The notes under the pieces are model-generated. The model was not told where the DNA came from and did no database searches. It saw nothing but the letters and a program-made list of their open reading frames with translations. Positions 46,832-63,998 of a DNA stretch of 64,000 nt are shown piece after piece. The stretch covers positions 23,514 through 87,513 of the forward strand of contig CALOFD010000012.1 in assembly GCA_942492505.1 (NCBI GenBank). The letters are read 5' to 3'. A program made the translations under genes and the position numbers. This DNA comes from Thermoanaerobaculia bacterium (GTDB lineage Bacteria > Acidobacteriota > Thermoanaerobaculia > Multivoradales > Multivoraceae). Within the stretch, counting starts at the first letter, position 1, and the number at the start of each line of letters is the position of its first letter.

Positions 46832-47662
46832 ATGAAGAAACTTCGGATCGTCTCCTGGAACGTGAACGGGCTTCGAGCCTGCGCCCGCAAGGGGTTCCTG
46901 GAGTGGCTGGCGACCAGTCGCAGCCAGATCGTCGGCCTCCAGGAGGTGCGCGCCCTGCCCGAACAACTCGAGCCCGAGCTTCGTCGGCCACCGCGCTGGT
47001 ACACCCACTTCGCGCCCGCGCAACGCAAGGGCTACAGCGGGGTCGGCCTCTACAGTCGACGGCGACCCGATACGGTGGTCGATCGGCTCGGCGTCGAACG
47101 CTTCGATCGCGAAGGCCGGGTCCAGATCGCACGCTTCGGCCGCCTGATCGTCGCGAATGTCTACTTCCCGAAGGGCTCGGGAACGCAACGCGACAACAGC
47201 CGAGTTCCCTACAAGCTCGACTTCTATCGCGAACTCTTCGACCTGCTCCAGGGTCTGCGAAAGGGCGGCTACCGCGTCCTGGTGATGGGCGACTTCAATA
47301 CCGCCCATCACGAGATCGATCTCGCTCGACCGACGTCCAACCGCAAGAACTCGGGGTTCCTGCCCGAAGAGCGCGAACTCGACCGCTGGGTCGAGGCCGG
47401 CTGGGTGGATACCTTCCGCCACTTCCAACCCGAAGACCGGGTCTACTCCTGGTGGAGCCAGCGTTTCGGCCTCCGGGATCGCGACGTCGGCTGGCGCATC
47501 GACTACGTCTTCGCCTCACCCGCGGCTCTTCGCTATGCTCGCAAGGCGTTCATCCTGACCGAGGTCACGGGTTCCGACCACTGCCCCGTCGGTCTGGAGG
47601 TGGACGCCGAGATCATCGAACTGAGCCGCCACAATCCCCGGCCACGGCCCCCTGGAGACTGA
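46832..47662 (+). CDS. xth: exodeoxyribonuclease III
   Basis: MKKLRIVSWNVNGLRA...GLQEV...GDFNTAHHEIDL...WRIDYVF...SDHCPV. Confidence 0.93.
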   Translation: MKKLRIVSWNVNGLRACARKGFLEWLATSRSQIVGLQEVRALPEQLEPELRRPPRWYTHFAPAQRKGYSGVGLYSRRRPDTVVDRLGVERFDREGRVQIARFGRLIVANVYFPKGSGTQRDNSRVPYKLDFYRELFDLLQGLRKGGYRVLVMGDFNTAHHEIDLARPTSNRKNSGFLPEERELDRWVEAGWVDTFRHFQPEDRVYSWWSQRFGLRDRDVGWRIDYVFASPAALRYARKAFILTEVTGSDHCPVGLEVDAEIIELSRHNPRPRPPGD

Positions 47663-47666
47663 ATCC

Positions 47667-48662: not shown

Positions 48663-48690
48663 ATCGACCGGCGATGAACTCGGTCCGAGA

Positions 48691-49554
48691 CTACTGACCG
48701 GGAACGACCTGGTCGTAGTTGGGTGTGGCGTCGGCTCCCGAGTTCCCGAGACTCCAGTCGAGAGCATCGAGAAAGGCTTCCTGGAAGGTGGCGTTGTCCC
48801 AAACGTCCTCCCGATGTCCCATGGCGTTGTAGAAGACCCTGCCGGCCCCCACGGCCTTGCACCAGATGATCGGGTACGCCGGCTGCTGATAGAGGGCCTG
48901 CCCGAAGGGATCGCTCGTGGTGTCCAGCAGCGCGATCACATGGAGGTTCTCGGTATCGAGATTCCTGAAGGCGTACCACTCATCCTGGATGGACCATTCC
49001 AGGGGCAGGGAACGAACTGTCGGATGGTCGGCGTCGACGACTTTCACCCGACCTTCGAACTGCCGCCCATGAGACAGGAACTCGCCTCCCAACAAGCGGA
49101 TGTAGGGTGTCGGTTCTCCGCCCGGATTCCTGAAGGTATCGCTTGCGGAATGAAATCCGAGCAGAGCGCCTCCGGATTCAACCCACTGGCGAAGATCTGC
49201 GATCCCACCCGCCGGGATGCCGGGCTCGCTGTCACCACCGAACAACCCCTTTCCCGAGCCCGCCACCGTCAGGTCTCCGGTCGTGTAGAAGATCACGGCC
49301 TGAAAGAGCATCAGCTCGGAGGCCGTGATCAGCGATCCGTCCTTGCTGGTGACGATCTCGAACCCGTTTGCCTCTGCCAGCGAACGAAGCACCTGCTCGA
49401 CGTGACTGGGCTGCCCTTCTACCCGCTTGATCACCGGGTGCTCGAAGCCCGAGGACTTCGAGAAGAACAGCACCCTGGGAACCTGCGCCAGGCCCGGCCC
49501 AGCGAGGATTCCAAGGCTCATGGACAGGACGGCGACTCGCACGACATGCCACAT
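48691..49554 (-). CDS. ThuA-domain protein (secreted)
   Basis: The ATG at 49554 gives a signal peptide (MWHVVRVAVLSMSLGILAGPGLA). The ThuA-like body includes VLFFSKSSGFEHP and LLGFHSASDTF. Confidence 0.72.
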   Translation of the reverse strand: MWHVVRVAVLSMSLGILAGPGLAQVPRVLFFSKSSGFEHPVIKRVEGQPSHVEQVLRSLAEANGFEIVTSKDGSLITASELMLFQAVIFYTTGDLTVAGSGKGLFGGDSEPGIPAGGIADLRQWVESGGALLGFHSASDTFRNPGGEPTPYIRLLGGEFLSHGRQFEGRVKVVDADHPTVRSLPLEWSIQDEWYAFRNLDTENLHVIALLDTTSDPFGQALYQQPAYPIIWCKAVGAGRVFYNAMGHREDVWDNATFQEAFLDALDWSLGNSGADATPNYDQVVPGQ

Positions 49555-49763
49555 CTTCAGCGACCTCCGCGCGCAGTCTGTCACGCGCCTCGAGGTCGAG
49601 CATCGGGCTCCGGTCCCGGGTCTCGACTCGTAGGGCGGGGACACCCTCACCCCATGGGAGGGTCCGCTGCCTGAAGGAAGAGGTATCCTTGGATCGGACT
49701 CGACAGTCCCGACTTCCGGGAGTCGTCGAGTCGCTTGATTGCGAAAGGAGAGGCGAGCGAAAC

Positions 49764-50108
49764 ATGGACATAACGATCAACACACAGCATTTCGATCTGA
49801 CCGCCAACGTCGAGACTGCGATCCGGGATCGGGCCGAAAGGCTCGAGAAGTTCCATCCCAACCTGATCCATTGCATCGTCACTGTCGAGGGACCCAGCGA
49901 GCATCATCAGCACGGCGGGACCTACGATGTGCGTCTCGAGATTCGCCTTCCCGGTCCCGCGATCGTCATCAACCGCCAACCCAACGAAGACCTGGGAATC
50001 GCTCTTCGAGACGCCTTCGAGGCGGCGAAGCGACGCATCGAGGACCACAACGAGAAACTGCGCGGTCCGAGAGGCCACGAACGCAGGCACGGCTCGGTCG
50101 AGGTCTGA
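49764..50108 (+). CDS. hpf: ribosome hibernation promoting factor / RaiA (short form)
   Basis: AAGGAGAGG lies upstream of the ATG at 49764. The product begins MDITINTQHFDLTANVETAIRDRAERLEKFHPNLIHCIVTVE. Confidence 0.88.
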   Translation: MDITINTQHFDLTANVETAIRDRAERLEKFHPNLIHCIVTVEGPSEHHQHGGTYDVRLEIRLPGPAIVINRQPNEDLGIALRDAFEAAKRRIEDHNEKLRGPRGHERRHGSVEV

Positions 50109-50147
50109 TCCGAGCGGCGACCGCCCATCGATGACGCGGGGATCGTC

Positions 50148-51159
50148 TCAGGTCGAGGGGACGCGGAGGCGGACATTGCCGTCCTGGGTGCGAACCCTGA
50201 GCCGACCGGAACCGTCGCCGAGCACGCCCGAGGCTCTCCGGCGCTCCTCGCTGACATCGTCGAGACTCGGTCCATCGATGTCGATCCGACCACTCCCGGT
50301 GTGGATCTCGAAGGCGAGAGCCGCCCCCGGAGGAAGATCGATCTCGACATCGCCATCGTCCGACTCCACATCGATCTGCACCTCGGAGTCGCCGACGAGA
50401 CTCAGTTCGATATCGCCGTCCTGGGTGCGGATATCGATCTCCCCGGCCTCGAGTCGCCGCATCCTCACCGACCCGTCGTCGCCGACTGCGTCGATGTCCC
50501 CGGAGCAGTTCTCGACGTGGAGATCGCCGTCCTGGAGCCGGAAGCGGCCCCCACGACAGGTCGCTGTCACTCAGGTAGACATTGCCGTCATCGGCTCGTA
50601 CGAAGAGCTCGCCGGTCAATCGCTCAGCCGAAACGTCGCCGTCTTCGATCTCGATCGCAACGCGGGGCGAGTCGAGGCCATCGAGATTGACGTCGCCGTC
50701 GTCCAGGCGGATGTCCACTTCTCCAGCCCAGTCGACGACCGAGACGTCGCCGTCGTCGCCGGTGAACTCGAGATCGATCCACGGCGGCGCCGAGATCGTG
50801 TAGAGGTAGTCGTACTGTCGCGAGGAGCGGAAACCGATCGTGAATCCCGACCTGCCCGTCTCCCTGCCGATCACCGTCACCGTGCTGCCGGACTGATCGA
50901 ACTCGACCTCGAAGTCGGCGTCGTCGCGCCCGAGGCCCAACACGGTGATGTCGGCTCGGTACAGCACGTGGACCTCGATCTGCGGCCGCTCCCAGGGGCG
51001 AATCTCGACGTCACCATCGCCATGCTCCAGGCGAAGTCGAGCCCCGGGGGACACCTCGAAGGTCCTGGAGAACTCCTCGTTGATCTCCCTGGCCGAAGCA
51101 GGCGCCGCCAGCAGGGCCAGCGAGAGAACGGACAACCGCAGGAAATGAGCTTGCTTCAT
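50148..51159 (-). CDS. DUF4097-like beta-helical putative adhesin, split by a 1-nt frameshift at a C5 run
   Basis: Signal peptide MKQAHFLRLSVLSLALLAAPASA, then repeated DGDV/DGNV units. Track ORF 49969..51159 degenerates after ...DDGNVYLSDSDLS. ORF 50148..50570 continues the repeats (RFRLQDGDLHVENCSGDID...). Removing one C of CCCCC (50548-50552) joins them. Confidence 0.65.
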
Positions 51160-51210
51160 CGACTTCTCCTTCAGTCATCCCTACGAGATCGACGGGTTCG
51201 ATGTTCTGGC

Positions 51211-51286
51211 GCCCGACGCAGGATGCCCGACGCCGGATGCCCGACGCCGGATGCCCGACGCCGGATGCCCGACGCCGGATGCCCGG
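51211..51286. repeat. 14-bp tandem repeat x5.4 (GCCCGACGCCGGAT)
   Basis: Copies lie at 51211-24 (1 mismatch), 51225-38, 51239-52, 51253-66 and 51267-80, with a partial copy at 51281-86. The repeat sits in the divergent intergenic region between the DUF4097 gene and the ABC permease operon. Confidence 0.9.
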
Positions 51287-51407
51287 TGCTAGCATCGCCC
51301 CGCCCATTCCCCAACGGGACACGTCCGGAAGAGTTCGGTGAATTCTTTCGAATCCGTCGCCGCCTGCCCGCCCAGCCCGCGTCGCAACCACCGCTGATCG
51401 ACACGGC

Positions 51408-52376
51408 ATGCTCACCCGAAGACTTCTCCAGGGAATCCTCCTTCTCTTCGCCGCCTCGGCCCTGTCCTTCCTGCTTGCAGCCCTGACGCCCGGCGAATAC
51501 TTCGACGAACTGCGCCTCGACCCGAACGTTCCCGAAGACACGATCGAGTCGATGCGCCAGCGCTACGGCGTCGGCGACCCTCTAGCGCAGCGATACCTGC
51601 GCTGGCTCGGCTCGGTGACCCGCGGCGAACTCGGTTTCTCGCTGCGCTACCGAACCGAGGTCAGGCCCCTGCTCCTGCGAAGAGCCGGAAACACACTGCT
51701 GTTGACCGGCCTGGCGACTTCTTGCGCGTGGGCTCTCGCACTGCCGTTCGGTATCTGGGCGGCGACGAGCCCGAAGAAATGGGCTTCCTCCTTCTTCTCG
51801 GGATCGACGTCGCTGCTCCTCGCGATCCCCGATCTCGTCCTCGCCCTGCTCGCCCTGATGCTGGCGATCCGCTCCGGTTGGTTTCCCGTCGGGGGCATGA
51901 GGTCCTCGAACTTCGATTCCCTCGGGCCGATCGCCCGAGCTTCTCGACCTGGGGCATCATCTTTGCTGCCGGCCCTGGTGATCGCGCTCGGACTCCTCCC
52001 GACGCTCTCGCGCCATGTCCGCGCCGCGGTCGGCGAGACTCTCGACGCTCCCTTCGTTCGCGCAGCGCGGGCGAGGGGACTCCCCGAACGGACGATTCTC
52101 TATCGGCATGTCCTGCCGGCCGCTGCCAACCCCCTGATCAGTCTTGCAGGCCTGTCGATCGCCTCGCTGGCCGGGATCTCCCTGGTGGTCGAGGTGGTGC
52201 TGGCATGGCCGGGGATCGGCCCGCTGCTCCTCGAGTCGATCCAGGTCCATGACATCGACCTGGTCATCGGCGGCGTCCTGATCACGACGCTCCTCCTGGT
52301 GATCGGAAACGGACTCGCCGACCTCGCCTTGTGGATGACAGATCCTCGACTTCGAAGGCGCGATCCCTCTCCATGA
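51408..52376 (+). CDS. ABC transporter permease (Opp/Dpp B-type, peptide/nickel family)
   Basis: 322-aa ORF. The N-terminus MLTRRLLQGILLLFAASALSF...PGEYF and multiple TM helices match the OppB/DppB pattern. Confidence 0.88.
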   Translation: MLTRRLLQGILLLFAASALSFLLAALTPGEYFDELRLDPNVPEDTIESMRQRYGVGDPLAQRYLRWLGSVTRGELGFSLRYRTEVRPLLLRRAGNTLLLTGLATSCAWALALPFGIWAATSPKKWASSFFSGSTSLLLAIPDLVLALLALMLAIRSGWFPVGGMRSSNFDSLGPIARASRPGASSLLPALVIALGLLPTLSRHVRAAVGETLDAPFVRAARARGLPERTILYRHVLPAAANPLISLAGLSIASLAGISLVVEVVLAWPGIGPLLLESIQVHDIDLVIGGVLITTLLLVIGNGLADLALWMTDPRLRRRDPSP

Positions 52377-53341
52377 GTTCCCGTACGACCCCGCGCCTGC
52401 TGCCTGCCATCCTCGTTCTGGTCCTCATCCATGCGACAGCACTGCTGGCAGGTTTCTTCGGTCCCTACGAGCCCGCCGAGCAGGATCGATCGCGCCCCAG
52501 CGAGTCTCCGTCTTCGATCGACCTCCACGGCGCCGACGGCCGCGTCGGCCTGTTCGTGGCTGACCCGGGCGACATCGCCACGCCCACAGCTCCTCTCCAG
52601 TTCCTCGTCACACGCGACGACAGGGTCCGCCTACTCGGCGTCGATCCGCCCACCCGACTGAATCTGCTCGGAACCGACTCCCTCGGTCGCGATGTGTTCT
52701 CGAGACTGCTGTGGGGAGGTCGCGTCTCACTCCTCGCCGGTCTGGTCGCAACCTTTCTCTCGATCGCACTCGGGACGACACTCGGAATCGTCGCCGGCTT
52801 CTACGGAGGCCGTATCGACGCCCTCCTGATGCGGGTGGCAGATCTGTTCCTCGCGCTTCCGCTCCTCTATCTGCTTCTCGCGATCCGCGCTCTTCTCCCC
52901 CTGTCGATCTCGACCACCACCGCGTTCCTGCTTCTGATCGGGGTTCTCGGTCTCGCCGGATGGGCTCGACCGGCCCGTCTCGTGCGGGGCGTCGCCCTGG
53001 CCGCACGAGAGCGCGACTTCGTTCTGGCGGCGCGCTCCCTCGGCGCCAGTGACATCCACATCCTGTTTCGCCATGTCCTGCCCCAGACGCGAAGCGTGGT
53101 GCTCACACAGGCCGCTCTGCTCGCGCCGCAGTACGTCCTGGCCGAGGTCGCGCTTTCCTACTTCGGGGTCGGCGTCTCGGAACCCACTCCGAGTTGGGGG
53201 ACCATGCTGGCGGAGGGCGCCTCCTTCGCGGCTCTTTCAGTGCCCCATTGGTGGTTGCTCAGCCCCGCCCTGCTGCTGGTCGCCACGTTCGTGGCGTATC
53301 ATTCCCTGGCGCGATCGCTGGATGGAGGTTCGCACGGCTGA
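52373..53341 (+). CDS. ABC transporter permease (Opp/Dpp C-type)
   Basis: The ATG at 52373 overlaps the preceding stop (ATGA). Contains LLGTDSLGRDVFSRLLWGGRVSL, typical of OppC/DppC. Confidence 0.88.
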   Translation: MSSRTTPRLLPAILVLVLIHATALLAGFFGPYEPAEQDRSRPSESPSSIDLHGADGRVGLFVADPGDIATPTAPLQFLVTRDDRVRLLGVDPPTRLNLLGTDSLGRDVFSRLLWGGRVSLLAGLVATFLSIALGTTLGIVAGFYGGRIDALLMRVADLFLALPLLYLLLAIRALLPLSISTTTAFLLLIGVLGLAGWARPARLVRGVALAARERDFVLAARSLGASDIHILFRHVLPQTRSVVLTQAALLAPQYVLAEVALSYFGVGVSEPTPSWGTMLAEGASFAALSVPHWWLLSPALLLVATFVAYHSLARSLDGGSHG

Positions 53342-53350
53342 GAAGTTCCG

Positions 53351-55105
53351 ATGATTGAAACCGCCGCTCGACGGCCTGCCCGATGCTCCCTCGGACTGCT
53401 CGTGGCCCTCGTTGCCGCCCTGTCATTCGGCTGCGGTGACGCGAGCCCGGAGTCCGCGAGCGAGTCGGTCGAGCTGCCCCTTCAGCGCGGCGGACGGCTC
53501 GTTCTGACCCTGAAGAGCGAACCCGAGAGCTTCAATCCCGTCCTCGCCGTCGGCGCCAGCACGCACCGTATCGTCGATCGAATGCATGGCGACCTCCTGC
53601 ATATCGATCCGTTCACGCAGGAGGTGGTACCAAACCTCGCCGAGTCCTGGGACGTCTCGGCAGATGGCACGGTCTACACGGTTCACCTGCGAAAGGGACT
53701 TCGCTTCTCCGACGGGGAAGTCCTCGACGCAGATGACGTCGTGTTCACCTATCGAGTCCACCTCGATCCGTCGATCGCCAGTCCCCAGAGGGATCTGCTG
53801 TCTCCCGGCGGCACTCCCCTGACGATCGAGAAGGTCGACTCCGATACCGTCGAATTCAGCCTCCCCCGCCCGCTGGCGGCGGGCCCCAGACTCTTCGACT
53901 CCATCGCCATCCTGCCGGAGCACCGACTGCGCGAAGCCTGGTCGAGCGGCCGGCTCCAGGAGACCTGGCAGACCTCGACTCCGGCGTCGGAGATCGTTGG
54001 AGCCGGCCCCTTCACGCTCGGCGAGTACCGCAACGGCGAGTTCCTCGACCTCGACCGAAACCCCTACTACTGGAAGACCGGCGACGACGGCGACAGGCGT
54101 CCCTACCTCGACGGGATCCGCTTCCTCTTCGTCTCCGACGACGACGCTCGCGTACTTCGCTTTCAGGCCGGCGAGGCCCACATCATCGACGATCTCGGTT
54201 CCGACAACTTCGCCGCGCTGAGCAGTTCACAGGCCGACACCGGGATGCGACTCGTCGATGCTGGCCCCTCCCTCGAGCGCGAGATGCTGATCCCCAATCT
54301 CAACGATCTCCCGCCGAGCACCGCACCCGAGCACGTCCAGGCCCAGGCCTGGCTGGAGAGACCCGGCTTCCGCAGCGCCCTCTCCCTCGCCATCGACCGC
54401 GACAGCCTCGTTCGGCTGGCCTATCAGGGGCGCGCCAGCGCTCTGCGATCGAACGTCAGTCCGGGGGATCGCTTCTGGCACAACGATTCCCTGCCACCCC
54501 CGGACCGAGATCTCGCGCGCGCTCGCGAAACACTTGAGGGGGAAGGATTCCGATGGGCCGAAGACCAACTCATCGGTCCTGAGGGTGCCCCCGTCCGACT
54601 TTCGATCCTGACGTCTTCCACGAACTCCAAGCGCCTCAAGATGGCAGCCATCATCGAACAGGACCTGGCGGAGCTGGGGATCGAGGTCCGCGTCGTTTCG
54701 CTGCCCCACGGCGCCGTCGTCGAACGGCTCCTGCAGACCTTCGCCTACGACTTGATCCTCCTCGGCTTCGGAAGCGGTGACGCCGACCCCAATCCCGCTC
54801 TTCCCTTCCTCCTATCCACAGGCGGCCTTCACGTGTGGCGACTGAACGACACCGAGCCCTTGAGCCCCTGGCAGGCCGAGATCGATGCACTCATGAAAGC
54901 TCAACTCGTAGAGACCGACCGACAAGCCCGAAAACGCCTCTACGACCGCGTCCAGGAAATCGTGGCAGAAGAACTCCCCGTCATCCCCCTCGTATCCCCC
55001 CACGTCCTGGTAGGCGCCCAGGCCACCGTCGGCAACTTCCGCCCCGCCATCCTCGAACCGAATGCGATCTGGAACGCCGACGAGTTGTTCCTCGCCTCTC
55101 CCTGA
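53351..55105 (+). CDS. ABC transporter substrate-binding protein, family 5 (peptide/nickel)
   Basis: 584-aa ORF with a lipoprotein-like N-terminus (LVALVAALSFGCG) and SBP_bac_5-like sequence. No ATPase genes follow. Confidence 0.85.
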   Translation: MIETAARRPARCSLGLLVALVAALSFGCGDASPESASESVELPLQRGGRLVLTLKSEPESFNPVLAVGASTHRIVDRMHGDLLHIDPFTQEVVPNLAESWDVSADGTVYTVHLRKGLRFSDGEVLDADDVVFTYRVHLDPSIASPQRDLLSPGGTPLTIEKVDSDTVEFSLPRPLAAGPRLFDSIAILPEHRLREAWSSGRLQETWQTSTPASEIVGAGPFTLGEYRNGEFLDLDRNPYYWKTGDDGDRRPYLDGIRFLFVSDDDARVLRFQAGEAHIIDDLGSDNFAALSSSQADTGMRLVDAGPSLEREMLIPNLNDLPPSTAPEHVQAQAWLERPGFRSALSLAIDRDSLVRLAYQGRASALRSNVSPGDRFWHNDSLPPPDRDLARARETLEGEGFRWAEDQLIGPEGAPVRLSILTSSTNSKRLKMAAIIEQDLAELGIEVRVVSLPHGAVVERLLQTFAYDLILLGFGSGDADPNPALPFLLSTGGLHVWRLNDTEPLSPWQAEIDALMKAQLVETDRQARKRLYDRVQEIVAEELPVIPLVSPHVLVGAQATVGNFRPAILEPNAIWNADELFLASP

Positions 55106-55314: not shown

Positions 55315-58016
55315 GTGCAACTCAGGGTCGAAAGACTCGTTGATGTGGCGAAGCGTGCGGGGGCAAGCAGAACAACGGCCTTCATCTTCAAGGCCGCGGG
55401 AAACCACATCGCTGCGAACACCCGCGACGCGGAGACAGGCCTCAGCCTTCTCTCAGACGCCCTGGAGCTGTTCACATCCCTTGGAGACGACCTACAGGCA
55501 GGGATCACTCGGAGCTGCCTCATTCTTACCTTGGTGGAGACCGGTGATTTTGAGCGGGCGTCGGCAGAAGCCGGAACCGCCCGACAGACCTTCCAGAGAC
55601 TTGGCGATCAACTTCGGCTCGCAAGACTTGACGTGAACGAGGGCAACATCGCCTTCAAACAAGACCGATTCGCCGACTCAGAGCGTCTGTGGACCAGGGC
55701 CTTGGGAACCTTGATGGTTCGAGGCACCACTACCGACATCACCAATTGTCTGATCAACATAGGCTGCAGCAAGGTGCAGACGGGACACATACCGGAAGCC
55801 CTCAGGCTCTTTGAAAGAGCTAGCACCTTCCTTGCCGAGGAGGGACCGAGTCAGGCCAGACTTGTGCTCCTTTACAATCAAGCTTGGGCCCTCATGCACT
55901 GGGGGCATCACTCTCAAGCCCTCTCACGCCTCATGGCCCTAGAAAAGGCCTTTCTGGAAATAGGGAACCACTACTACGAGGGCCTGGTTCTCCTAGCTCT
56001 CGGCCAGATCCTTCTAGATCATTGGCTTCTGAGAGATGCCCGCCGTCGGATCGATCGGGCGCTGTCTCTGTTTGCGCGGCGCCACGCACCCTACGAACGT
56101 GCAAAGGCCTTCTTCCTTCTCGCAGTCTGTGAGTCGTCTTCCGGTGATCTGGATGTGGCAATGCAACTCCTCGATCAGGCCCAAGCTCGCTTTGAGAGAC
56201 TTGGCAATACAGCCTGGCTTCAGAGAATTAGGTTGCAGAAGGGACAGATACTCCTCGCAAGCGGACGGACGGAGCAAGCGCTGCGAATAGCACGACTATG
56301 CGAGTCGGACCTTGGGCCTCCAGCGACACCAGACATCGAATGCCTTTTCGACCTTCTCTACGGCCAATGTCTCGCAGCGACAGGGGAATCAAAACAGACC
56401 TTCGAACTCGCTCGAAGTCTGTTGCCAAGAGTGGTCCTGCTCGATCGAAAGCACCTTGAGATCGAAGCCCTAGCTCTAGTCGGGAGGTCGGCAGAAGACC
56501 TTGGCTTGGACAACCAAGCCGCCAAGGCCTACCTCCAAGCCGCTGCGCTCGTTGAATCCATCAGTGAGTCTCTACCACCACTAGACCTGAGAGGTGGATT
56601 CCTTGCTGGGAAGGTAGACGTCTACCAACGCCTATTTCTTCTGGCAGCTCGAAAGGGGGACGTCATCCGCGCCTTCGCCTCAATCGAGCGCTCCAAGGCT
56701 GTGAGATTTCACTACTACTCGTCGAAGCCGTTCTGGCAAGACACGACTGCAAGGAGCGGCAGCGCGGCTTCCGAGTTGAGTGCCGGGGCTGAAGAACTAA
56801 GAAGACTTTCCCACCAACTTCGTGAACTCCGAGCAAGCGAGCAGCGAAGAGGTGCCTCGCAGATCGGAGATCTCGCCTCAGTCCTTGAGTCCGAAGCCAC
56901 CGAAACGCTGAGGTTCATGGGAGTAAGGGGACACAAGGAAGGAGCAGGTCCGCTCCCTGAGCTGACAGATGTTCAGGAAGCTCTCGGTTCGCAAACTACT
57001 CTGCTGCACTATTACTCCACCGGCGATCAACTTTGGTGCTTGTCAGCCACGCGCGACAGCGCCAATCTGTTCGAGATTGGGAGCTCCTCTGAAATTGCCG
57101 AGGCCCTTCAGCTATTTAGGTACGCGCTAACTCCTGCAGCAGCAGGTAGAGACCAACAAGCCAGAACCAGAGCAGAGCATCACCTCAGTCGACTTCACAA
57201 CCTTCTCCTCGCACCTGTTGAAGGCACGCTACTCGAGCAGCTGATCGTCATTCCCGAGGGGAGTCTTTCCCGGGTGCCGTTCCATGCGCTCCTGGGACCT
57301 GATCGGGAGTACATGATCGATCGACACAGATTGACCGTCCAGCCCTCGGCGCAATGTCTGTCTGAATGCTCCAGTCAACCCGCAAAGAGCATTGGAGCAT
57401 CCCTATTGGTAGGTGTCGGCGACTCAGTAGCTACAGGCATGGGTGCCGAAGCCGAGCAGCTCTCAAGATTGATTCCAGGTGCTCGCCTTCTCCTAGGTCA
57501 CGATGCAACGGCGGCGGTCGTAGCAAACGAGATCGAGTCAGTCCAACTCGTCCACTTTGCCAGTCATGGAATGTTTGAGGAGCTAGGCCTCTCTTCTCCC
57601 ATCTCAGACTCGGTGATGGTCCCTTCTACCTTCACGACTTGGTCGGGCTGGATCTCACAAACATCGAACTTGCGGTGCTGAGCGGATGCAACATGGGGGT
57701 CGAGCCGGAAGGCCCAACGGCATACATGATGGCTTGGCCACATTTCTTAATGGCTTCTGGAGTGCGAGCTGTTGTTTCTGCCCTCTGGCGGGTTGATGAC
57801 GCAGCTAGCGTTTACTTCATGAGGTGCTTCTATGAAGGTCTCATGAGCGGGGTGCCCAAGGACGAATGTCTGAGACGAGCCTGTCTAAGCGTCCGTGAGA
57901 TTCGCAGGCATCCATACTTTTGGGCTCCCTTCGTCCTCGCAGGGTCAAGTGATGCAATTGAGTTTGCCCCCCCGCCCCCTTCTGAGGTTCACGATGTCAG
58001 CCAGCACTTCAGATAG
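55315..58016 (+). CDS. TPR-repeat CHAT-domain (caspase-like) protease, catalytic dyad intact; one frameshift; start unresolved
   Basis: Track ORFs 55315..57681 and 57639..58016. The His motif VHFASHG lies in the first, and the Cys motif LSGCNMG plus the terminal HPYFWAPFVLAG in the second. Adding one C to CCC (57598-57600) joins them (...LGLSSPHLRLGDGPFYLHDLVGLDL...). The same frame is open and protein-like back to 55150 with no ATG/GTG/TTG. Confidence 0.8.
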
Positions 58017-58082: not shown

Positions 58083-60932
58083 GTGCAGAAGGAATTCTCG
58101 GTCGATCTGACCGCAGTCCGCGCTCTCAGAACAGAGAACGAACGTCTTGAGTTCCTTGCTGCGAACCCATTAGCCGTGTCCCGAGAGGGTCTATCGCACT
58201 TAGCGGCAGAGGCAGTAGAACTCCTCTCATCTGATCTTGAAGGCTGCGATGATTTCCTTGAAACCTTGGAGTGGTTTTCCGAAAGAGCGAAGGATGACTA
58301 TTCCAGGGGCAGGGTGTTGCGCGCCAAGGCCAATGCGAGGTACGTGCAGGGGCGCTTGGAGGAGGCTGTAGGAGCATTCGAAGAGGCAGCGAACCTCTTC
58401 GCTTCAGCCGGGGAGGAACTTGACGAAGCAATCACGTACAGCTCCGGCCTTCTCTCGATTCTCCTGACGGGTGATCATCGTCGAGTCGAAGAATGGGCGC
58501 GCCGAGCACGATCGATCTTCGATGCACTCGGGGACGATCTGAGATTAGCTCGGCTGAACTTTAACTACGCGAACGTACTCTTCCGACGAGATCGCTGGGA
58601 GGATGCAGCGAAGAGCTATGAGGCTGCTTATGGAATCTTCAAGCGCCTAGGGAGTCACCGAGACGTCGCGACTTGCCTAAGCAACATGGCCGTATGCCAG
58701 ATAAGCGTTCACAACTCTGACAAGGCGGCCTATTTCTACAGCAGGGCTCGGTCCTACTGTGAGTCTCATGGACTGGCAGTGCTCACCGCGAGAATCGACT
58801 ACAACTATGCCTACCTTTTCTATCTCCGAGGTGAGTACACGACCTCTCTGGAGCTCTTTGAGCAAGCCCGAGAACGCTGCATCGCATTGGGGGACCAATA
58901 CCATCCTGTTCTCTGCAACCTCGACGAGGCAGAAATCTACCTAGAACTGAACCTGACCCAAGAAGCGACCACTCTGGCCTCAAGAGCGCACCAGGGCTTC
59001 GAAAGCTTGGGAATGCCCTATGAGAGCGCGAAGGCTCTTACTCTCTGGGCGATTGCCGTCGGCAGGCAAGGGAAATGGATCGCGGCTCTCGAGATGCTTC
59101 AACGCGCCCGCTCGATCTTTGAGCGAGAAGAGAACGAGGTTTACAAGAGCCAACTAGATCTTCATTCCGGGATAGTGCTTCTCAAGGCGGGCAGACCCTT
59201 TGAAGCTATCCGGTTAGCCAAACGCGCGCAGAAAGGTCTAGCTAGTCTGGGATTGCAGAGAAAGGAGGCCCAAGCATGCCTGCTGATCTGCAAAGGCCGA
59301 CTCGATCAACGGCACTTAGACGAGGCGGAAACAGAGCTTCGGAAAGCCTTCAGCCTTGCATCTGGACCTGGTAGCGCAACCGTTCTTTGGCAGGCCCACT
59401 ACCTCGCCGGAAGAATAGATCTTGAGAGGGGGGATCGAAGTTCAGCGGAACGAGCTTTCCGTCTGGCGCACGAGAGTCTTGAAGAGATCCGAAGCCACGT
59501 ACGTACAGAGGAGCAAAAGATTCCGCTCGTGGACGACAAGCTTGTCGTCTACGAAGAACTTGTTGTCCAACTGGCTTCGGAAACGCAGACTCCTGAGATC
59601 GCGGCGGAGGCCTTCAAGTTCGTCGAGAAGGCCAAAGCCAGGTCTCTCTCTGACATGGTCGCGACACGAGCAGCGACCCTGTCGGAAAGAACGTCAGGTC
59701 GCAGCCAGCTGGCATCCCAAGTCTCAAAGCTCCGGGAGGAGCTGAACTGGTACTACCGCCAGATAGACCTTCAAGAGATGAGGGGAGACGCGCACGAGCC
59801 CGGGAGCATGTCTCCCTTGCTGAATGCGAGCGAGCGTTATGAGGCGGACCTTCTCAAGTCCTTGGGTCGACTCTCGTCGACTGACAGGGAGGTTAGCTCA
59901 CTTCAAGAGGCATTGGTGGTTGATCCGTCTTCTATTCAGGAACTCCTCAGCCAAGATGAAGTCATCCTAGACTTCTATGAGGCCAAGGGAGTTATGTACG
60001 TCGCCACCCTAGATCAGAGTAGCGCGGAGATCATTCCCGCGACGCTCTCCTCTATCGCTAGTGACCTTTATACCGAGCTTCGATATGTAATGAGCCGACT
60101 CCAGGCTGACCCAGACACCGCGCGAAGCCCAAACGATCAAGCCGGCCTTGACTTGCAGCATCTCTTGGAGAGGCTTTTCGACGAGCTCATTTCACCGATA
60201 GCCCACCGCCTCAAACCAAAGCTGGTTGTGGTTCCATGTGGTGCCCTCTTCCACCTACCGTTTCACGCGCTGAACGGCCCCATAGGTCCCTTATCCAAAG
60301 AGCACCAAGTCACCTATTCGCCAAGCGCTACAACATGGTTTCTCTCTCGCTCAAGAGAAGCTTCGTCGAACACTGGTCTCCTCGTCGCGTTTGAACAACC
60401 TCGAATCAGCACTATTGAGGCATGCTTCAGAAACTCTCTGTTCAGGGCTGCAACCTCCCCTAACGATTTTGTCGAGGAAGCTCGTGAAGCAAGGACCATC
60501 TTCGCGGACGGCTCGGCGTCCTATCGACCAGACAATCCGATGTTCTCGACTCTGCGGATTGCCGGCAAAGACTACTCCCTGTTCGATCTTCTGAACTTGG
60601 ACTTGGACGCTCAACTATTCGTGCTTTCAGGGTTTCAGCAGACTTCGTTGGCAGCGAGCAAGGGTGACGAAGTCTTTGGTCTTTACAGGACCCTCCTGTA
60701 CGCAGGCTCACGGGCGATTGTCCACAACCTTTGGCGACCAAGCGCCCGTGCCCAGGAGAAGTTCGTGGTGAGGCATTGGCAAGACTGGCCTCCGGCACCA
60801 GCGTGCAGATCTCATACTCGGAGACGATGGACGAACTCCGTCAAACACTCTCAGCGGTCCTCACGAGTGGGGACCCTTCGTTCTCGTCAACTCAGTAAGG
60901 CCGAGGAGTGTTCAATAGCCGATCTAGCATAA
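58083..60932 (+). CDS. TPR-repeat CHAT-domain paralogue with substituted catalytic residues (predicted inactive); C-terminus frameshifted twice
   Basis: GTG start. It has TPR-like repeats and a CHAT-like C-terminal domain. The His motif position reads IFADGSASY and the Cys motif reads LSGFQQT. The canonical ending (FYEALARLASG...HEWGPFVLVNS) is recovered only through two -1 frame changes near 60765 and 60865, giving a probable true stop at 60916-60918. Confidence 0.78.
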   Translation: MQKEFSVDLTAVRALRTENERLEFLAANPLAVSREGLSHLAAEAVELLSSDLEGCDDFLETLEWFSERAKDDYSRGRVLRAKANARYVQGRLEEAVGAFEEAANLFASAGEELDEAITYSSGLLSILLTGDHRRVEEWARRARSIFDALGDDLRLARLNFNYANVLFRRDRWEDAAKSYEAAYGIFKRLGSHRDVATCLSNMAVCQISVHNSDKAAYFYSRARSYCESHGLAVLTARIDYNYAYLFYLRGEYTTSLELFEQARERCIALGDQYHPVLCNLDEAEIYLELNLTQEATTLASRAHQGFESLGMPYESAKALTLWAIAVGRQGKWIAALEMLQRARSIFEREENEVYKSQLDLHSGIVLLKAGRPFEAIRLAKRAQKGLASLGLQRKEAQACLLICKGRLDQRHLDEAETELRKAFSLASGPGSATVLWQAHYLAGRIDLERGDRSSAERAFRLAHESLEEIRSHVRTEEQKIPLVDDKLVVYEELVVQLASETQTPEIAAEAFKFVEKAKARSLSDMVATRAATLSERTSGRSQLASQVSKLREELNWYYRQIDLQEMRGDAHEPGSMSPLLNASERYEADLLKSLGRLSSTDREVSSLQEALVVDPSSIQELLSQDEVILDFYEAKGVMYVATLDQSSAEIIPATLSSIASDLYTELRYVMSRLQADPDTARSPNDQAGLDLQHLLERLFDELISPIAHRLKPKLVVVPCGALFHLPFHALNGPIGPLSKEHQVTYSPSATTWFLSRSREASSNTGLLVAFEQPRISTIEACFRNSLFRAATSPNDFVEEAREARTIFADGSASYRPDNPMFSTLRIAGKDYSLFDLLNLDLDAQLFVLSGFQQTSLAASKGDEVFGLYRTLLYAGSRAIVHNLWRPSARAQEKFVVRHWQDWPPAPACRSHTRRRWTNSVKHSQRSSRVGTLRSRQLSKAEECSIADLA

Positions 60933-60944: not shown

Positions 60945-61655
60945 ATGTCCACCCCATCGAACATGCTCAGCCCCTTGAACAGGAACCCTCGCATAGCCCT
61001 CAAAAAGCTTGAAGAAGAGGTGCGAAAGACAAGAACGGGTGTCATGTACGCTCTGAACATGATGCTTGATCTCAAGGATCTTCGGACCGGTTTCCATGCG
61101 ACCCGTCTCGCAGAGTGGGCAGTGAGGGTTGCCGAAGACGTTGGAGTTACCAAGGAGGATCTCGAAGATATTGAGCGAGCCTCTCTCCTGCACGATATCG
61201 GGAAGATAGGGGTCCCTGACCAAATTCTTCTCAAACCGGGGAAGCTCACAGAATCCGAGCGAGAGCTAGCCGAGAAGCACCCTGAGTTCGGTTGGGCCAT
61301 TCTGCGACCGATCCCTGGCTTTGAGAAAGCTAGCCTCCTTGTGCTCCACCACCATGAACGCTGGGACGGAGGGGGCTACCCGGCAGGTCTAACGGGATCC
61401 GAGATCCCGCTGGGTTCTAGAATCGTGTCGATCGTAGATGCCTACGACGCGATGATCTCGGATCGAGCCTACCGGTCTGGCCTGCCCAAAGAGGAGGCAC
61501 TTAGACGCCTAAGGAAGGATGCGGGGAGCCAGTTCGATCCGGAATTGACCGAGTTTTTTATCCGGCTTGTTGAAAGCGTTGAGGATGATGCCGAGGGCAG
61601 CATGGAACGGGCTATTCCTGACTTCGCGATCGCTCGAGTTCAACAATCCCTTTGA
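60945..61655 (+). CDS. stand-alone HD-GYP domain protein (cyclic-dinucleotide phosphodiesterase family)
   Basis: 236-aa ORF with LLHDIGKIGVPD and HHHERWDGGGYPAGL. There is no receiver or other sensor domain. Confidence 0.88.
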   Translation: MSTPSNMLSPLNRNPRIALKKLEEEVRKTRTGVMYALNMMLDLKDLRTGFHATRLAEWAVRVAEDVGVTKEDLEDIERASLLHDIGKIGVPDQILLKPGKLTESERELAEKHPEFGWAILRPIPGFEKASLLVLHHHERWDGGGYPAGLTGSEIPLGSRIVSIVDAYDAMISDRAYRSGLPKEEALRRLRKDAGSQFDPELTEFFIRLVESVEDDAEGSMERAIPDFAIARVQQSL

Positions 61656-61858
61656 CTCATTGAATCTTGTTCGCATAAAATTGCTCAGACAACCGATTGC
61701 GTTCAGGGGCATCCGCTCCTGAAAGGTAGCCCGACGAAACTCTCCGACTTTGGAGGAGGTCGCTGGTCCTGCCTTTCTAGCCCCTAGGACTTAGGCCAAC
61801 ATAGTAGAGAAGATCTAGAACACCTACCTACCAGTCTCTGGCTGCGTAGAACCGCAAA

Positions 61859-61902
61859 CCCCGCTTCACTCCGGATTCTTGCTGGAGGTGACGGGGGTTT
61901 TT
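61859..61902 (+). terminator. intrinsic-terminator-like hairpin + T-tract just upstream of the micro-ORF cassette
   Basis: CCCCG-ct-TCAC-TCCGG-attcttg-CTGGA-g-GTGA-CGGGG followed by G-TTTTT (61898-61902). About 14 bp are paired and the loop is 7 nt. Confidence 0.55.
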
Positions 61903-61938
61903 GCGTTTATAGGGACTTTAACCAATTTGGGAGAGACG

Positions 61939-61988
61939 ATGAGCACCATCAAGAGTTGGTCAGAGCATTGACTGCATCAAGGAAGTAA
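61939..61988 (+). pseudogene. decayed leading copy of the micro-ORF
   Basis: ATGAGCACCATCAAGAGTTGGTCAGAGCATTGACTGCATCAAGGAAGTAA matches the GGTCAGAGCAT(C/T)GACTGCATCAAGGAA core. However, it is about 7 nt shorter, out of frame (MSTIKSWSEH*), and an extra G destroys the normal stop. Confidence 0.6.
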
Positions 61989-62021
61989 CCCTCAATCCCC
62001 ATCCAAACGGAGACACACACC

Positions 62022-62078
62022 ATGAAGATCAAAACCAGCGTCAAGGTCGGTCAGAGCATCGACTGCATCAAGGAATAA
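62022..62078 (+). CDS. micro-ORF copy 1, 18-aa peptide MKIKTSVKVGQSIDCIKE
   Basis: GGAG lies 9 nt upstream. ATG...TAA, with codon 10 = GGT. Confidence 0.7.
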   Translation: MKIKTSVKVGQSIDCIKE

Positions 62079-62111
62079 CCCTCAATCCCCATCCAAACGG
62101 AGACACACACT

Positions 62112-62168
62112 ATGAAGATCAAAACCAGCGTCAAGGTCGGGCAGAGCATCGACTGCATCAAGGAATAA
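62112..62168 (+). CDS. micro-ORF copy 2, identical 18-aa peptide
   Basis: GGAG lies 9 nt upstream. ATG...TAA, with codon 10 = GGG. Confidence 0.7.
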   Translation: MKIKTSVKVGQSIDCIKE

Positions 62169-62201
62169 CCCTCAATCCCCATCCAACCGGAGACACACAC
62201 C

Positions 62202-62258
62202 ATGAAGATCAAAACCAGCGTCAAGGTCGGACAGAGCATCGACTGCATCAAGGAATAG
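62202..62258 (+). CDS. micro-ORF copy 3, identical 18-aa peptide
   Basis: GGAG lies 9 nt upstream. ATG...TAG, with codon 10 = GGA. Confidence 0.7.
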   Translation: MKIKTSVKVGQSIDCIKE

Positions 62259-62297
62259 CTACCTTTCACACCTCATAAACGATCAGGGAGTTTCACC

Positions 62298-62363
62298 ATG
62301 AAGATCAAAACCAGCGTCAAGGTCGGTCAAGAGAGATCGAGAGGAGTACCCATCCAGGAATAA
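62298..62363 (+). CDS. micro-ORF copy 4, variant 21-aa peptide MKIKTSVKVGQERSRGVPIQE
   Basis: GGGAG lies 7 nt upstream. The first 11 codons match the other copies in amino acid sequence (codon 11 CAA instead of CAG, both Gln), the tail diverges, and the frame and stop (TAA) are retained. Confidence 0.65.
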   Translation: MKIKTSVKVGQERSRGVPIQE

Positions 62364-62396
62364 CCCCGGACACCCAAGCAACCGGAGACACACACC

Positions 62397-62453
62397 ATGA
62401 AGATCAAAACCAGCGTCAAGGTCGGGCAGAGCATCGACTGCATCAAGGAATAG
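62397..62453 (+). CDS. micro-ORF copy 5, identical 18-aa peptide
   Basis: GGAG lies 9 nt upstream. ATG...TAG, with codon 10 = GGG. Confidence 0.7.
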   Translation: MKIKTSVKVGQSIDCIKE

Positions 62454-62461
62454 TCGAATCC

Positions 62462-62608
62462 ATGAAAACAAAGACAAACCTCAAGGCCGGATTCTCTGGG
62501 AGCGTCAAACCGCAGGTGTTTGAACTTCTCGAGACTCTGGTGAATCGACCCTCAGATCATCGATTCACAGTCAAGACTGGCCAGGCCGTTTCGGCCATTC
62601 TCGAATAG
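62462..62608 (+). CDS. 48-aa ORF related to the micro-ORF peptides at both ends
   Basis: MKTKTNLKAGFSGSVKPQVFELLETLVNRPSDHRFTVKTGQAVSAILE*. It starts 8 nt after copy 5, and the AAGGAA inside the copy-5 end could serve as its SD. The N-terminal MKTKTNLKAG and the C-terminal VKTGQAVSAILE parallel MKIKTSVKVG and VKVGQSIDCIKE. Confidence 0.6.
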   Translation: MKTKTNLKAGFSGSVKPQVFELLETLVNRPSDHRFTVKTGQAVSAILE

Positions 62609-62616
62609 CACTCAGC

Positions 62617-62682
62617 GCCGCGCCTGGTCGCGGCGGCTGTGTGAACCGCAGACCGGGGACCTCACCCAGGAGTGGTCTGCGG
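62617..62682. terminator. two GC-rich hairpins between convergent genes (possible bidirectional terminator)
   Basis: GCCGCG-cctggt-CGCGGC (62617-62634) and CCGCAGACC-19 nt-GGTCTGCGG (62646-62682). There is no clear U-tract. Confidence 0.4.
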
Positions 62683-62750
62683 GTGGCGAACAGCCATCTG
62701 GCCGTGGTCTATTCAGCCACGCCCATCCCCCCCGGGGCCTTCTCCCCCGG

Positions 62751-63998
62751 CTACGAGTGACCGACGACTGCCAGGGTCGGTGATCTCGCGATGATCACCT
62801 TGGCTGCGAGCATCGCGCTCTCGCCGTCGAGGCCACCCAGACTCTCGTCCAGGATCGAGATGTCGTGCTCCTGGATCAGGGTTCTCGCAATGAAGACGCG
62901 GCTGCGTTCTCCATGAGAGAGCTGCCAGCCGTTCTCTCCCACCATTTGGAACAGTCCCGACGGCATTCGCTCGAGGAGATCTCCGAGACCGAGTTCCCGG
63001 CAGAGTTCTTCGGCCCTATCGAGATCTTCCTTCATCGGCGGCCAGCGGTGCCCCATGAGGATGTTGAACGCCAACGACTCGCTCAGGATGTGGTTCTCGT
63101 GGAACTGCGGAGCGAGAATCACCGACTTGCGCCAGAATGCCGTGCCGGCACTCGTTCGATCGAGCCCCCTGAACAGTAGAAGCCCTGTCGAGGGACTGCG
63201 AAGTCCGGCAAGCAGGCTGGCCAGCGTCGACTTTCCCGAACCTGAGGGCCCCTCGAGAAGGATCCGGTCGCCCGCTGCGACCTCGAGGTCGAGATCGTCG
63301 ATGACCGGCTGAGTTCTCGAGGCGTACTGAAAGCCGAGTTCCTTCGCCTCCAGAAGCACTCGTCCCCTCGACTGCCCGCGAGTCAAGGCGAGATCGGGAT
63401 CCGATCGGAGAGAAGGCCGTGCTGCCGCGTCGAACATTTCCGCAACCTGATCCCAGGCGATCGAGGCACCCGACAATTGGCTCAGCCCGAGGGTGACTCT
63501 TCGAAGTGCGCCGTAGGCGAGCAAGATCCCTCCAAACGCCACCGCCAGGCTCTCACTCGAGGCACGGTCGCCCACCAGCAGCGGGGCGAGCCCGAGAACC
63601 CCGACGATCATCCAGCCCCGCGGCAGCGCAGATCCAAGACTCGCGGCAAGCCGATCGAGTCCTCGCGAAGCCCGACTGTATGCCTCGACTTCCCGGTCCT
63701 CGTCTTCGTGCCAACGAGCTCTCGATTCCTGGGCCTGACGCGTGCGATGTCCGAGGAGGCTCTCCACCAGAGCGTAGGTCAGACTCAGCCTGCCTTCGGT
63801 CCAGCCCCGTCTTCGGGCCGCGTAGCGACGCCCCACCCAGTAGACCACCACACTCCAGCCGACCAGCAGCAGGGCGTGGAGGGGGCCTCCGGCGCCGAGC
63901 CCCAGTACGACGGCCGCGAAGGCGACCTCGATGGCCCCCAACAGAAGGTGGAAGCCCCCGTTCAGGGCGAGCGACTCCATCGCTTCCGATTCGAGCAC
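62751..63998 (-). CDS. ABC exporter, fused TMD-NBD (N-terminus beyond the window end)
   Basis: The ORF is open to the window edge. About 200 aa of TM region precede the NBD, which has Walker A GPSGSGKST, an atypical signature LSHGERSR and Walker B ISILDES. It converges on the micro-ORF cassette. Confidence 0.85.
   Translation of the reverse strand: MLESEAMESLALNGGFHLLLGAIEVAFAAVVLGLGAGGPLHALLLVGWSVVVYWVGRRYAARRRGWTEGRLSLTYALVESLLGHRTRQAQESRARWHEDEDREVEAYSRASRGLDRLAASLGSALPRGWMIVGVLGLAPLLVGDRASSESLAVAFGGILLAYGALRRVTLGLSQLSGASIAWDQVAEMFDAAARPSLRSDPDLALTRGQSRGRVLLEAKELGFQYASRTQPVIDDLDLEVAAGDRILLEGPSGSGKSTLASLLAGLRSPSTGLLLFRGLDRTSAGTAFWRKSVILAPQFHENHILSESLAFNILMGHRWPPMKEDLDRAEELCRELGLGDLLERMPSGLFQMVGENGWQLSHGERSRVFIARTLIQEHDISILDESLGGLDGESAMLAAKVIIARSPTLAVVGHS

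Follow-up and report, generated by a model that had tools for sequence, protein, structure and literature searches.

Tandem micro-ORFs beside an ABC exporter gene in a Thermoanaerobaculia genome: likely precursor genes of tiny exported peptides with a short leader conserved across phyla

To our knowledge, dedicated signalling by ribosomally made peptides is poorly documented outside the Firmicutes. ATP-binding cassette (ABC) transporters that carry a peptidase (PCATs), together with an adaptor protein, export class II microcins and bacteriocins, and in heterocystous cyanobacteria a very short peptide gene, PatS (13–17 codons), takes part in one signalling process with HetC, a PCAT-like exporter, and HetF, a CHAT protease. 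The canonical double-glycine leader (TIGR01847-like) comprises about 15–30 residues, with hydrophobic side chains at positions -15, -12, -7 and -4 and GG, GA or GS at -2/-1. Known PCATs need a GG, GA or GS site, and LahT150 requires hydrophobic residues at -4, -7 and -12 (PMC10885120). The export cassette of the NHLP/Nif11 precursors is built from an HlyD-like protein (TIGR03794), an ABC transporter with a peptidase domain (TIGR03796) and one without (TIGR03797) (Haft et al. 2010, PMC2887384). Here we describe a tandem array of micro-open reading frames (micro-ORFs) in a 64,000-nt stretch of DNA, the window, from a Thermoanaerobaculia bacterium (Acidobacteriota; assembly GCA_942492505.1, contig CALOFD010000012.1, positions 23,514–87,513). 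The array is likely to encode precursors from which very small peptides are exported; a PCAT exporter would cut them after the sequence K-x-G at the end of a 10-residue leader.

The array lies on the plus strand. Five ATG codons at 62022, 62112, 62202, 62298 and 62397, spaced by 90, 90, 96 and 99 nt, open frames of 18–21 codons (62022–62078, 62112–62168, 62202–62258, 62298–62363 and 62397–62453) that are closed by TAA, TAA, TAG, TAA and TAG, respectively. A Shine-Dalgarno (SD) sequence precedes each of them: copies 1, 2, 3 and 5 have GGAG at a distance of 9 nt, and copy 4 has GGGAG at 7 nt. Four copies encode the same peptide, MKIKTSVKVGQSIDCIKE; copy 4 encodes MKIKTSVKVGQERSRGVPIQE, with an unchanged leader and another tail that yet ends in I-x-E. 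Only 8 nt after the last stop codon begins a long form of 48 aa (62462–62608), in which the leader MKTKTNLKAG is followed by a linker, a second K-T-G and the octapeptide QAVSAILE. The array is headed by a decayed repeat unit (about 61905–61988), recognized by alignment to copies 1 and 2, whose ATG has become ATC and which has suffered a 17-nt deletion and a 1-nt insertion 5' of the stop; the ATG at 61939 merely opens a 10-codon frame unrelated to the peptide. A preliminary description of this locus had listed the starts, spacings, SD motifs and stops, the four identical 18-mers with one variant-tail copy, the decayed leading copy and the 48-aa ORF, and all its coordinates could be reproduced.

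The tandem organization is beyond chance, Tandem Repeats Finder reporting a period of 90, 5.4 copies and a score of 631. Among the four identical copies, in-frame variation concerns only the third base of a Gly codon (ggt/ggg/gga/ggg) and one stop, which varies between TAA and TAG. The per-site difference among copies is 0.026 in the coding part, stop included, versus 0.141 in the 33 nt 5' of the starts. The antisense ORFs that cover the array (72 and 64 aa) are repeat-derived, as had been proposed, and they are interrupted at every ggt Gly codon, which reads TGA on the antisense strand. An antisense gene was dropped as the real product, its frames being broken both in the window and in the related locus L122. 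Folding of the repeat unit gave no sign of RNA structure (z +0.5 to +1.0 on both strands) and Rfam holds no family matching the window, which together rule out a structured small RNA; a CRISPR array is ruled out as well, since the whole 90-nt unit is repeated without unique spacers. A type I toxin was discarded because the peptides are hydrophilic.

Related micro-ORFs were sought with a deliberately loose tandem DNA pattern (MKxKT ... MKxKT) in one genome per species. Among the 120 loci listed, sorting afterwards left ten real arrays, about 110 being AT-rich or low-complexity noise. Tandem micro-ORFs with the leader are now found at no fewer than 20 loci, the window included, with up to 13 of them at a single locus; they encode peptides of 15–30 aa made of the 10-residue leader and a variable tail. 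The named taxa are Acidobacteriota, Myxococcota, Alteromonadaceae/Pseudoalteromonadaceae and Eisenbacteria. Examples are MKTKTQLKAGQSINAIVE in an unclassified metagenome-assembled genome (MAG; L002), MKIKTSIKAGPTCNSCRG in Polyangiaceae (L027), MKTKTNTKAGPKLKNQPD in a Pseudoalteromonadaceae MAG (L048) and in Alteromonadaceae bacterium M269 (L080), MKLKTKLKAGRLSSNHNPTVR in Terriglobales (L058), MKTKTNLKAGSAAWGS in Bryobacteraceae (L073) and MKVKTQVKAGSGSTIDPDG in Pyrinomonadaceae (L119), and two Myxococcales MAGs (L100, L110) carry further arrays of leader-type micro-ORFs.

The leader follows the profile M-K-[VIT]-K-T-x-[VILT]-K-[AVS]-G, with mostly Ala at position 9. Its strict motif occurs 79 times in 227 kb of array loci and 8 times in 835 kb of array-less loci from the same pattern scan, which form a conservative background. 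Upstream of 72 of 74 micro-ORFs there is an SD-like motif. At the positions that the motif leaves free (3, 6, 7 and 9), the leader is still constrained: residue 7 is V, I, L or T in 64 of 65 distinct peptides, and residue 9 is small (A/S/V/T) in all 65. Between loci, the proportion of synonymous differences in the leader is 0.75, i.e. saturated, and that of non-synonymous differences 0.24, a figure that is biased at the motif-fixed positions. From position 11 onwards, residues differ between lineages and are alike within one array.

Members of at least 20 residues have no match in Pfam or NCBIfam (release 20) even at E = 10, apart from a DUF6689 match of one peptide, which is below threshold and due to chance (17 bits for a cut-off of 27). 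The members previously called as genes are long forms of 43–56 aa only, and the family has stayed unannotated because its micro-ORFs are too short for standard gene callers. Searches of the freely accessible full-text literature by sequence strings and by concept retrieved no description of it; one paper, PMC12186529, was set aside as it concerns a canonical GG precursor. In an Eisenbacteria MAG (L145, 3156–3639), 43-aa precursors bear the leader motif twice, in the order MKTQTHLKAG, RLASNHNETLVREGRRTRGL, KVKTGVKAG and KKKK, and their core, RL[AS]SNHN, recurs in Terriglobales (L058). The leader, for example MKVRTSVKAG in L124 (7874–7939), also closely resembles the N-terminus of ribosomal protein L36, MKVRASVKK; this likeness may be a coincidence or a hint about origin.

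Ribosomal protein S1 assigns the window to the Acidobacteriota, its best named matches (71–83% identity) being Acidobacteriota, Thermoanaerobaculia and Holophagales. The closest relatives of the window locus share its gene order. In L121, L122/L123 and L124, two TPR-CHAT genes, an HD-GYP gene and the array are followed by convergent ABC2 (the second ABC subunit described below) and PCAT genes; PCAT, HlyD, HD-GYP, array and CHAT are all present in shuffled order in L129, which was added, together with L131, by a metagenome scan with an HD-GYP alignment. The short peptides are five copies of MN[VI]KTNVKAGSHINQIME, MKNLVLKTGNTVAAILE and MYQSHTKTGHSVSAILE in L122, four copies of MKV[TR]TSVKAGNLIHSSLE[AT]RR and one of MKVTTSVKAGNLIHSSLERRCS in L124, MNVKTTVKAGQQVIRLQG in L121 (where there is no long form), three copies of M[KNS]T[QK][ST]HVKAGATVTIIIS in L129 and two of MKTKTHVKAGQSTIAIVF in L131. 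Start codon, SD sequence, frame and length are kept in these homologous loci while the nucleotide sequence and the peptide tails change, so the frame-breaking changes that the preliminary description had named as evidence against genes do not appear, and the syntenic relatives retain their ORFs.

The long forms help to place the cleavage site. In positions matching that of the window 48-mer, which ends in KTGQAVSAILE, L122 has a 56-aa form ending in FFKTGQAVAAILE and L124 a 54-aa form ending in FFKTGHTVAAILE; L122 has another of 55 aa, ending in TRTGNCVATILE. An exhaustive protein search with the 48-mer yielded one true homologue, P0245 (50 aa), and a word-indexed search the query itself only; P0242 and other matches to repetitive proteins were rejected as chance on reading the sequences. 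Tails in the window clade obey the pattern [QSNH]-x-[IV]-x-x-[IL]-x-[E], and the most conserved tail is the C-terminal octapeptide of the long forms (QAVSAILE, QAVAAILE, HTVAAILE, and QSVSSILE in P0245). Conservation of the leader stops at G10, and K-x-G stands directly before every conserved octapeptide, in the long forms and also in L122 short peptides without the standard leader, where K-T-G abuts the octapeptide (MKNLVLKTG before NTVAAILE, MYQSHTKTG before HSVSAILE). The processing site is therefore placed after this Gly, and the likely product is the octapeptide released behind K-x-G. For the four identical copies, this prediction agrees with the product suggested at the outset, QSIDCIKE.

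The gene that converges on the array (62751–63998, minus strand) is its key partner, a connection that the preliminary description had not made. It encodes the C-terminal 415 aa of ABC2 (Pfam ABC_tran), which runs off the window and is 100% identical to the full-length protein P0002 of 703 aa. All-against-all BLAST of flanking ORFs revealed two families common to array loci, ABC transporters and a roughly 400-aa protein, the transporter family of the window gene being shared by L048, L080 and L119. The L080 array is followed, one after another, by genes for an HlyD-like adaptor (TIGR01843, 99 bits), a Peptidase_C39 ABC transporter (Pfam, 70 bits) and an ABC2 of about 705 aa. Among eight contexts fetched for ABC2 homologues (47–62% identity), seven have arrays beside HlyD-PCAT-ABC2 (L121, L122/L123, L124, L125, L126, L145 and L147); the remaining one, L146, is a contig of 7 kb that is truncated upstream. 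Peptidase_C39 adjoins the arrays of L048, L080, L121, L122, L124, L125, L126, L129, L145 and L147; HlyD, PCAT and ABC2 are all seen in L080, L122, L125, L126, L145 and L147, and HlyD and PCAT only in L048.

When the C39 domains of PCATs from six array loci are compared across phyla, they show 48–73% identity, a conservation equal to that of the leader. All six keep the Gln, the Cys of MDCGPA, the His of THF and the Asp of MDP, and the peptidase is therefore probably active. Residues 1–215 of P0002, which lie outside the window, and of its homologues align weakly to the C39 profile with Cys and His absent (hhalign probability 51%, E 1.6e-4), which suggests that the N-terminus of ABC2 is a degenerate C39-like domain; it may serve in substrate binding. 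A PDB sequence search with the PCAT gave generic matches to ABC nucleotide-binding domains only. Other genes accompany individual cassettes. Directly 5' of the L048 array stand genes with PAAR and Ntox44 toxin domains (1117–2403), and 4.5 kb downstream of the exporter (ABC2) of L125 there is an MNIO enzyme (MbnB_TglH_ChrH) with its HvfC_N partner (16638–18412). The tails of the L125 array contain Cys or Asp, then Pro-x-Gly, and the MNIO pair may mean that the peptides are modified in some lineages.

Acidobacteriota have a Gram-negative-type envelope. In the proposed mechanism, the 10-residue leader would be bound by the C39 domain of a dedicated HlyD-like adaptor/PCAT/ABC2 exporter, whose second ABC subunit would be the product of the gene at 62751–63998. 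The C39 peptidase would cut after K-x-G, i.e. after Gly10, and HlyD/PCAT/ABC2 would export mainly QSIDCIKE, owing to its four gene copies, plus QERSRGVPIQE, while QAVSAILE would be released from the 48-aa long form through its second K-T-G site. The ORF anatomy, the conservation of the leader, the gene linkage to the exporter and the intact C39 catalytic residues are direct observations; translation of the micro-ORFs, the position of cleavage and export are deduced from them.

Several points weigh against this reading. With its 10 residues, its A-G or V-G end, Lys at -7 and no position -12, the leader departs from the canonical PCAT motif. The PCAT and HlyD genes of the source genome would lie beyond the end of the window, within which only ABC2 is visible; exact-product look-ups with the HD-GYP protein, the 48-mer and ABC2 gave no result. 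Family members were gathered by a motif that fixes several leader positions, an ascertainment bias that inflates conservation there. Variable sites within arrays comprise 16 synonymous to 28 non-synonymous ones (p = 0.06), which is a weak synonymous excess, and changes between loci are not enriched at third codon positions (66/59/86). As for the neighbouring genes, four HD-GYP homologues (L128, L132, L133 and L138, 59–66% identity) have no array downstream, which rules out HD-GYP as a universal partner, and both TPR-CHAT genes of the window show frameshift-like damage; this may be an artefact of assembly, or the sensing module may be decaying in the source genome.

Two TPR-CHAT paralogues precede the array on the same strand. 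The first (55315–58016; Pfam TPR_12 and CHAT) is split, according to frame analysis and alignment, by a frameshift at around 57.6 kb: the frame 55315–57681 contains HFASHG, the canonical His motif, and the +1 frame at about 57579–57962 contains VLSGC, the canonical Cys motif, and PYFWAPFVLAG, the C-terminus. In the second (58083–60932; Pfam TPR and CHAT), motif alignment shows that the canonical CHAT His motif is absent, as it is in all orthologues (L122 14195–17047, L124 9334–12252, L129 4150–6954, L002 240–3272 and also L121), and in the window the Cys is replaced by Phe (VLSGF); its last ~60 residues look out of frame, with PHEWGPFVLV, the counterpart of the expected WAPF.L.G, in another frame near 60840–60900. 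The second paralogue is thus probably a pseudo-protease, judging by its motifs, and a candidate peptide-binding partner. The pseudo-CHAT paralogue, which always neighbours HD-GYP, and the one with both motifs would fit an active protease that works together with a receptor or regulator. The window, L002, L121, L122, L124 and L129 all have TPR-CHAT genes adjoining the array, so that the co-occurrence which the preliminary description proposed to check holds in the close clade. None of the TPR-CHAT proteins has a signal peptide.

Directly 5' of the array and co-directional with it is the gene of a stand-alone HD-GYP-type protein (60945–61655; Pfam HD_5, 141 bits), which has counterparts in the corresponding position in L121, L122, L124, L129 and L131. 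Further upstream, on the plus strand, is an Opp/Dpp-like peptide ABC importer with two permeases and a family-5 solute-binding protein (51408–55105; BPD_transp_1 twice, SBP_bac_5). Opp-like genes adjoin the array in the window and L002 and not in L122 or L124; the importer is a possible re-import route, and its membership in the system is uncertain. Other lineages have other neighbours: Ser/Thr kinases in L119 and L145, a TPR-only protein after the array in L058, and an ECF (extracytoplasmic function) sigma factor near the array in L122 and L124. In L126 (12530–16056), seven micro-ORFs with tails ending in IDPNG are followed, less than 150 nt on and on the same strand, by a histidine kinase and an OmpR-type regulator.

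What the peptides do is a separate question. That they are cell–cell or self signals rather than toxins, read out in the window clade via the cytoplasmic TPR-(pseudo)CHAT proteins and HD-GYP and perhaps re-imported by the Opp-like permease, has an even chance or a little less. Signalling is favoured because the products are tiny and hydrophilic, because there is no maturase among the scanned window ORFs, because the arrays have no evident immunity gene next to them and because the array neighbours in different lineages are sensors. If TPR-CHAT senses the peptide, its lack of a signal peptide means that the peptide needs to be re-imported. A bolder proposal, to which we give little weight, joins the array, the exporter, the TPR-(pseudo)CHAT pair, HD-GYP and the Opp-like importer into an Acidobacteriota quorum-sensing circuit and makes the MKxKTxxKAG micro-ORFs a pan-phylum class of pheromones. 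Octapeptides cut by the PCAT from the 18-aa precursors would then be secreted, re-imported and bound by the TPR domain of the dead CHAT protein, thereby controlling the active CHAT protease and the c-di-GMP phosphodiesterase. In other lineages, the sensors would be histidine kinases, Ser/Thr kinases or TPR proteins.

The multi-copy layout, with a leader and a hypervariable core, is equally that of precursors of peptides made on the ribosome and modified after translation (RiPPs), whose leader would guide a modifying enzyme encoded elsewhere and whose exported products would be modified, for instance at the single Cys. The MNIO and HvfC_N pair of L125, with the Cys- or Asp-containing cores of that array, points this way, as does the finding of Haft et al. 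2010 (PMC2887384) that leaders linked with an export cassette can occur together with various maturases. However, no radical SAM, YcaO, LanM/LanC, ATP-grasp or MNIO domain turned up in the 38 scanned window ORFs, several of which have no Pfam match, and L121, L122 and L124, which are syntenic, show no maturase either; across phyla the exporter and not an enzyme tracks the leader, and 10 residues are very short for a RiPP recognition element. That the peptides are RiPP precursors is rather unlikely. The preliminary description had spoken of precursors of secreted or modified peptides and of a window without a known maturase. The latter observation agrees with the scan of the 38 ORFs. The precursor and secretion part of the former is supported on comparative grounds, by the leader across phyla, the C39 exporter and synteny, whereas for its RiPP part no maturase turned up among the scanned ORFs. 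If the products were instead microcin- or bacteriocin-like and served competition, export by a PCAT and an adaptor would be the familiar route, tails would be expected to diverge fast between relatives as in an arms race, which they do, and the PAAR and Ntox44 genes next to the L048 array would be in keeping. But the predicted mature peptides of 5–13 residues, hydrophilic and apparently unmodified, are far smaller than known unmodified microcins, an immunity-like small membrane protein is not evident next to the arrays, and the neighbours are mostly signal-transduction genes, all of which makes an antimicrobial role unlikely.

Another possibility is that the peptides never leave the cell and that the adjacent TPR-CHAT proteins take them as ligands or substrates, while the exporter carries some other cargo. 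The missing signal peptides agree with it, and so do the constancy of TPR-CHAT as array neighbour in the window clade and the convergence of the array on the exporter operon, without co-transcription. It is nevertheless improbable, given that in other phyla the arrays of L048, L080, L125, L126, L145 and L147 lie operon-like before, inside or after HlyD-PCAT-ABC2 with no TPR-CHAT gene and that both the leader and the C39 domain are unusually conserved. Finally, the micro-ORFs could be accidental or regulatory upstream ORFs in a non-coding tandem repeat, or the antisense ORFs could be the real genes. Units of 90–99 nt, as multiples of three, do give open frames on both strands, and the L124 array is fully open in antisense over 223 codons. 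Yet the antisense frames are broken in the window (at most 74 codons) and in L122, while start codon, SD sequence, length class and leader are kept across phyla even though synonymous sites are saturated; with the lack of RNA structure, Rfam match and CRISPR-like spacers reported above, this explanation is very hard to sustain. We therefore return to exported peptides cut behind the leader as the preferred reading.

A few further features surround the array. A sigma-70-like promoter candidate, TTGACT-18-TAAAAT, lies on the plus strand at 61652–61681; it is weak, the consensus scan returning 1 site against 0.8 expected in shuffled sequence. Downstream of the HD-GYP gene, a hairpin with a U-run (61859–61907, plus strand; -31.5 kcal/mol, z -1.4) resembles a terminator or attenuator, and three strong terminator-like hairpins separate the array from the convergent ABC gene (62609–62720; -58.1 kcal/mol, z -2.45). 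Elsewhere in the window, a DinB_2 and FGE-sulfatase protein of EgtB-like architecture (26335–27621), 35 kb from the array, is apparently unrelated. Seven ORFs of 336–896 aa (within 9373–14605, 31684–33384 and 44108–51486) have no Pfam match at E <=1e-5 or, for the one of 519 aa, at E <=1e-3; they include ORFs of 666, 336 and 383 aa, and the 519-aa ORF just 5' of the Opp-like permeases.

The micro-ORFs form a peptide family that extends over several phyla and has so far gone unannotated. If a 10-residue leader suffices for recognition, cleavage and export by a PCAT, it would be the shortest known tag of its kind and, as such, a useful minimal tag for secretion and cleavage. A conserved cassette linking very short secreted peptides with TPR-CHAT and HD-GYP proteins, with kinases and with ECF sigma factors across Acidobacteriota and Myxococcota would also open peptide signalling outside the Firmicutes to direct tests.

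Compared with the described systems, the arrays share with double-glycine/PCAT systems (ComC/ComAB, BlpC, class II bacteriocins, microcins) a leader that ends in a small residue and Gly and is hydrophobic at -4, a product that varies and forms the C-terminus, and two partners, an adaptor protein and an ABC transporter whose C39 domain is intact. The genomic association with C39-ABC genes that marks double-glycine peptides is likewise found at the arrays, only the partner ABC2 being visible in the window, and the succession of array, histidine kinase and response regulator in L126 mirrors comCDE. The differences lie in the Lys-rich, 10-residue leader ending in A-G, V-G or S-G, with Lys instead of a hydrophobic residue at -7 and with neither -12 nor -15, and in precursors of 15–30 aa with products of 5–13 residues and tandem amplification. 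Position by position, the leader (Gly at -1, Ala/Val/Ser at -2, V/I/L/T at -4, Lys at -7, no -12) agrees with the canonical definition at -4 and -1 only and so falls outside it.

Like the cyanobacterial trio PatS/HetC/HetF, the system combines a very short peptide gene, a PCAT-like exporter and a CHAT-domain protease, but in cyanobacteria these genes are dispersed instead of clustered, no tandem amplification is known, and the MKxKTxxKAG leader is absent from PatS. With the RRNPP systems of Firmicutes (Rap-Phr, PlcR-PapR, Rgg-SHP), it has in common the gene of a cytoplasmic TPR protein directly adjoining those of short pro-peptides, an importer of Opp type, which is close by in the window and in L002, and a mature signal that is a C-terminal oligopeptide, here a predicted one. 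In contrast to RRNPP, the output on the array side is a CHAT (pseudo)protease and HD-GYP and not a helix-turn-helix protein or phosphatase, the exporter linked to the arrays is a PCAT and not Sec or PptAB, and the host belongs to the Acidobacteriota with their Gram-negative-type envelope.

The nearest match in architecture is the NHLP/Nif11 cassette, with which the arrays share the three-gene arrangement including a second ABC transporter without peptidase, a leader whose conservation follows the transporter and not a maturase, and paralogous precursor families. The proteins nevertheless score far below the cut-offs of its models (149.7 versus 853.3 bits for the first ABC subunit, 103.7–149.5 versus 709.4 for ABC2 and 39.5 versus 156.2 for HlyD), and its leaders, of about 70 residues or more, are unrelated in sequence to the array leader; NCBIfam models found no nitrile-hydratase-like or Nif11-like leader on the precursors of 15–56 aa. 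As far as can be read from sequence, the system works like a double-glycine/PCAT system and is built like the NHLP/N11P cassette, while standing outside the sequence-defined membership of both.

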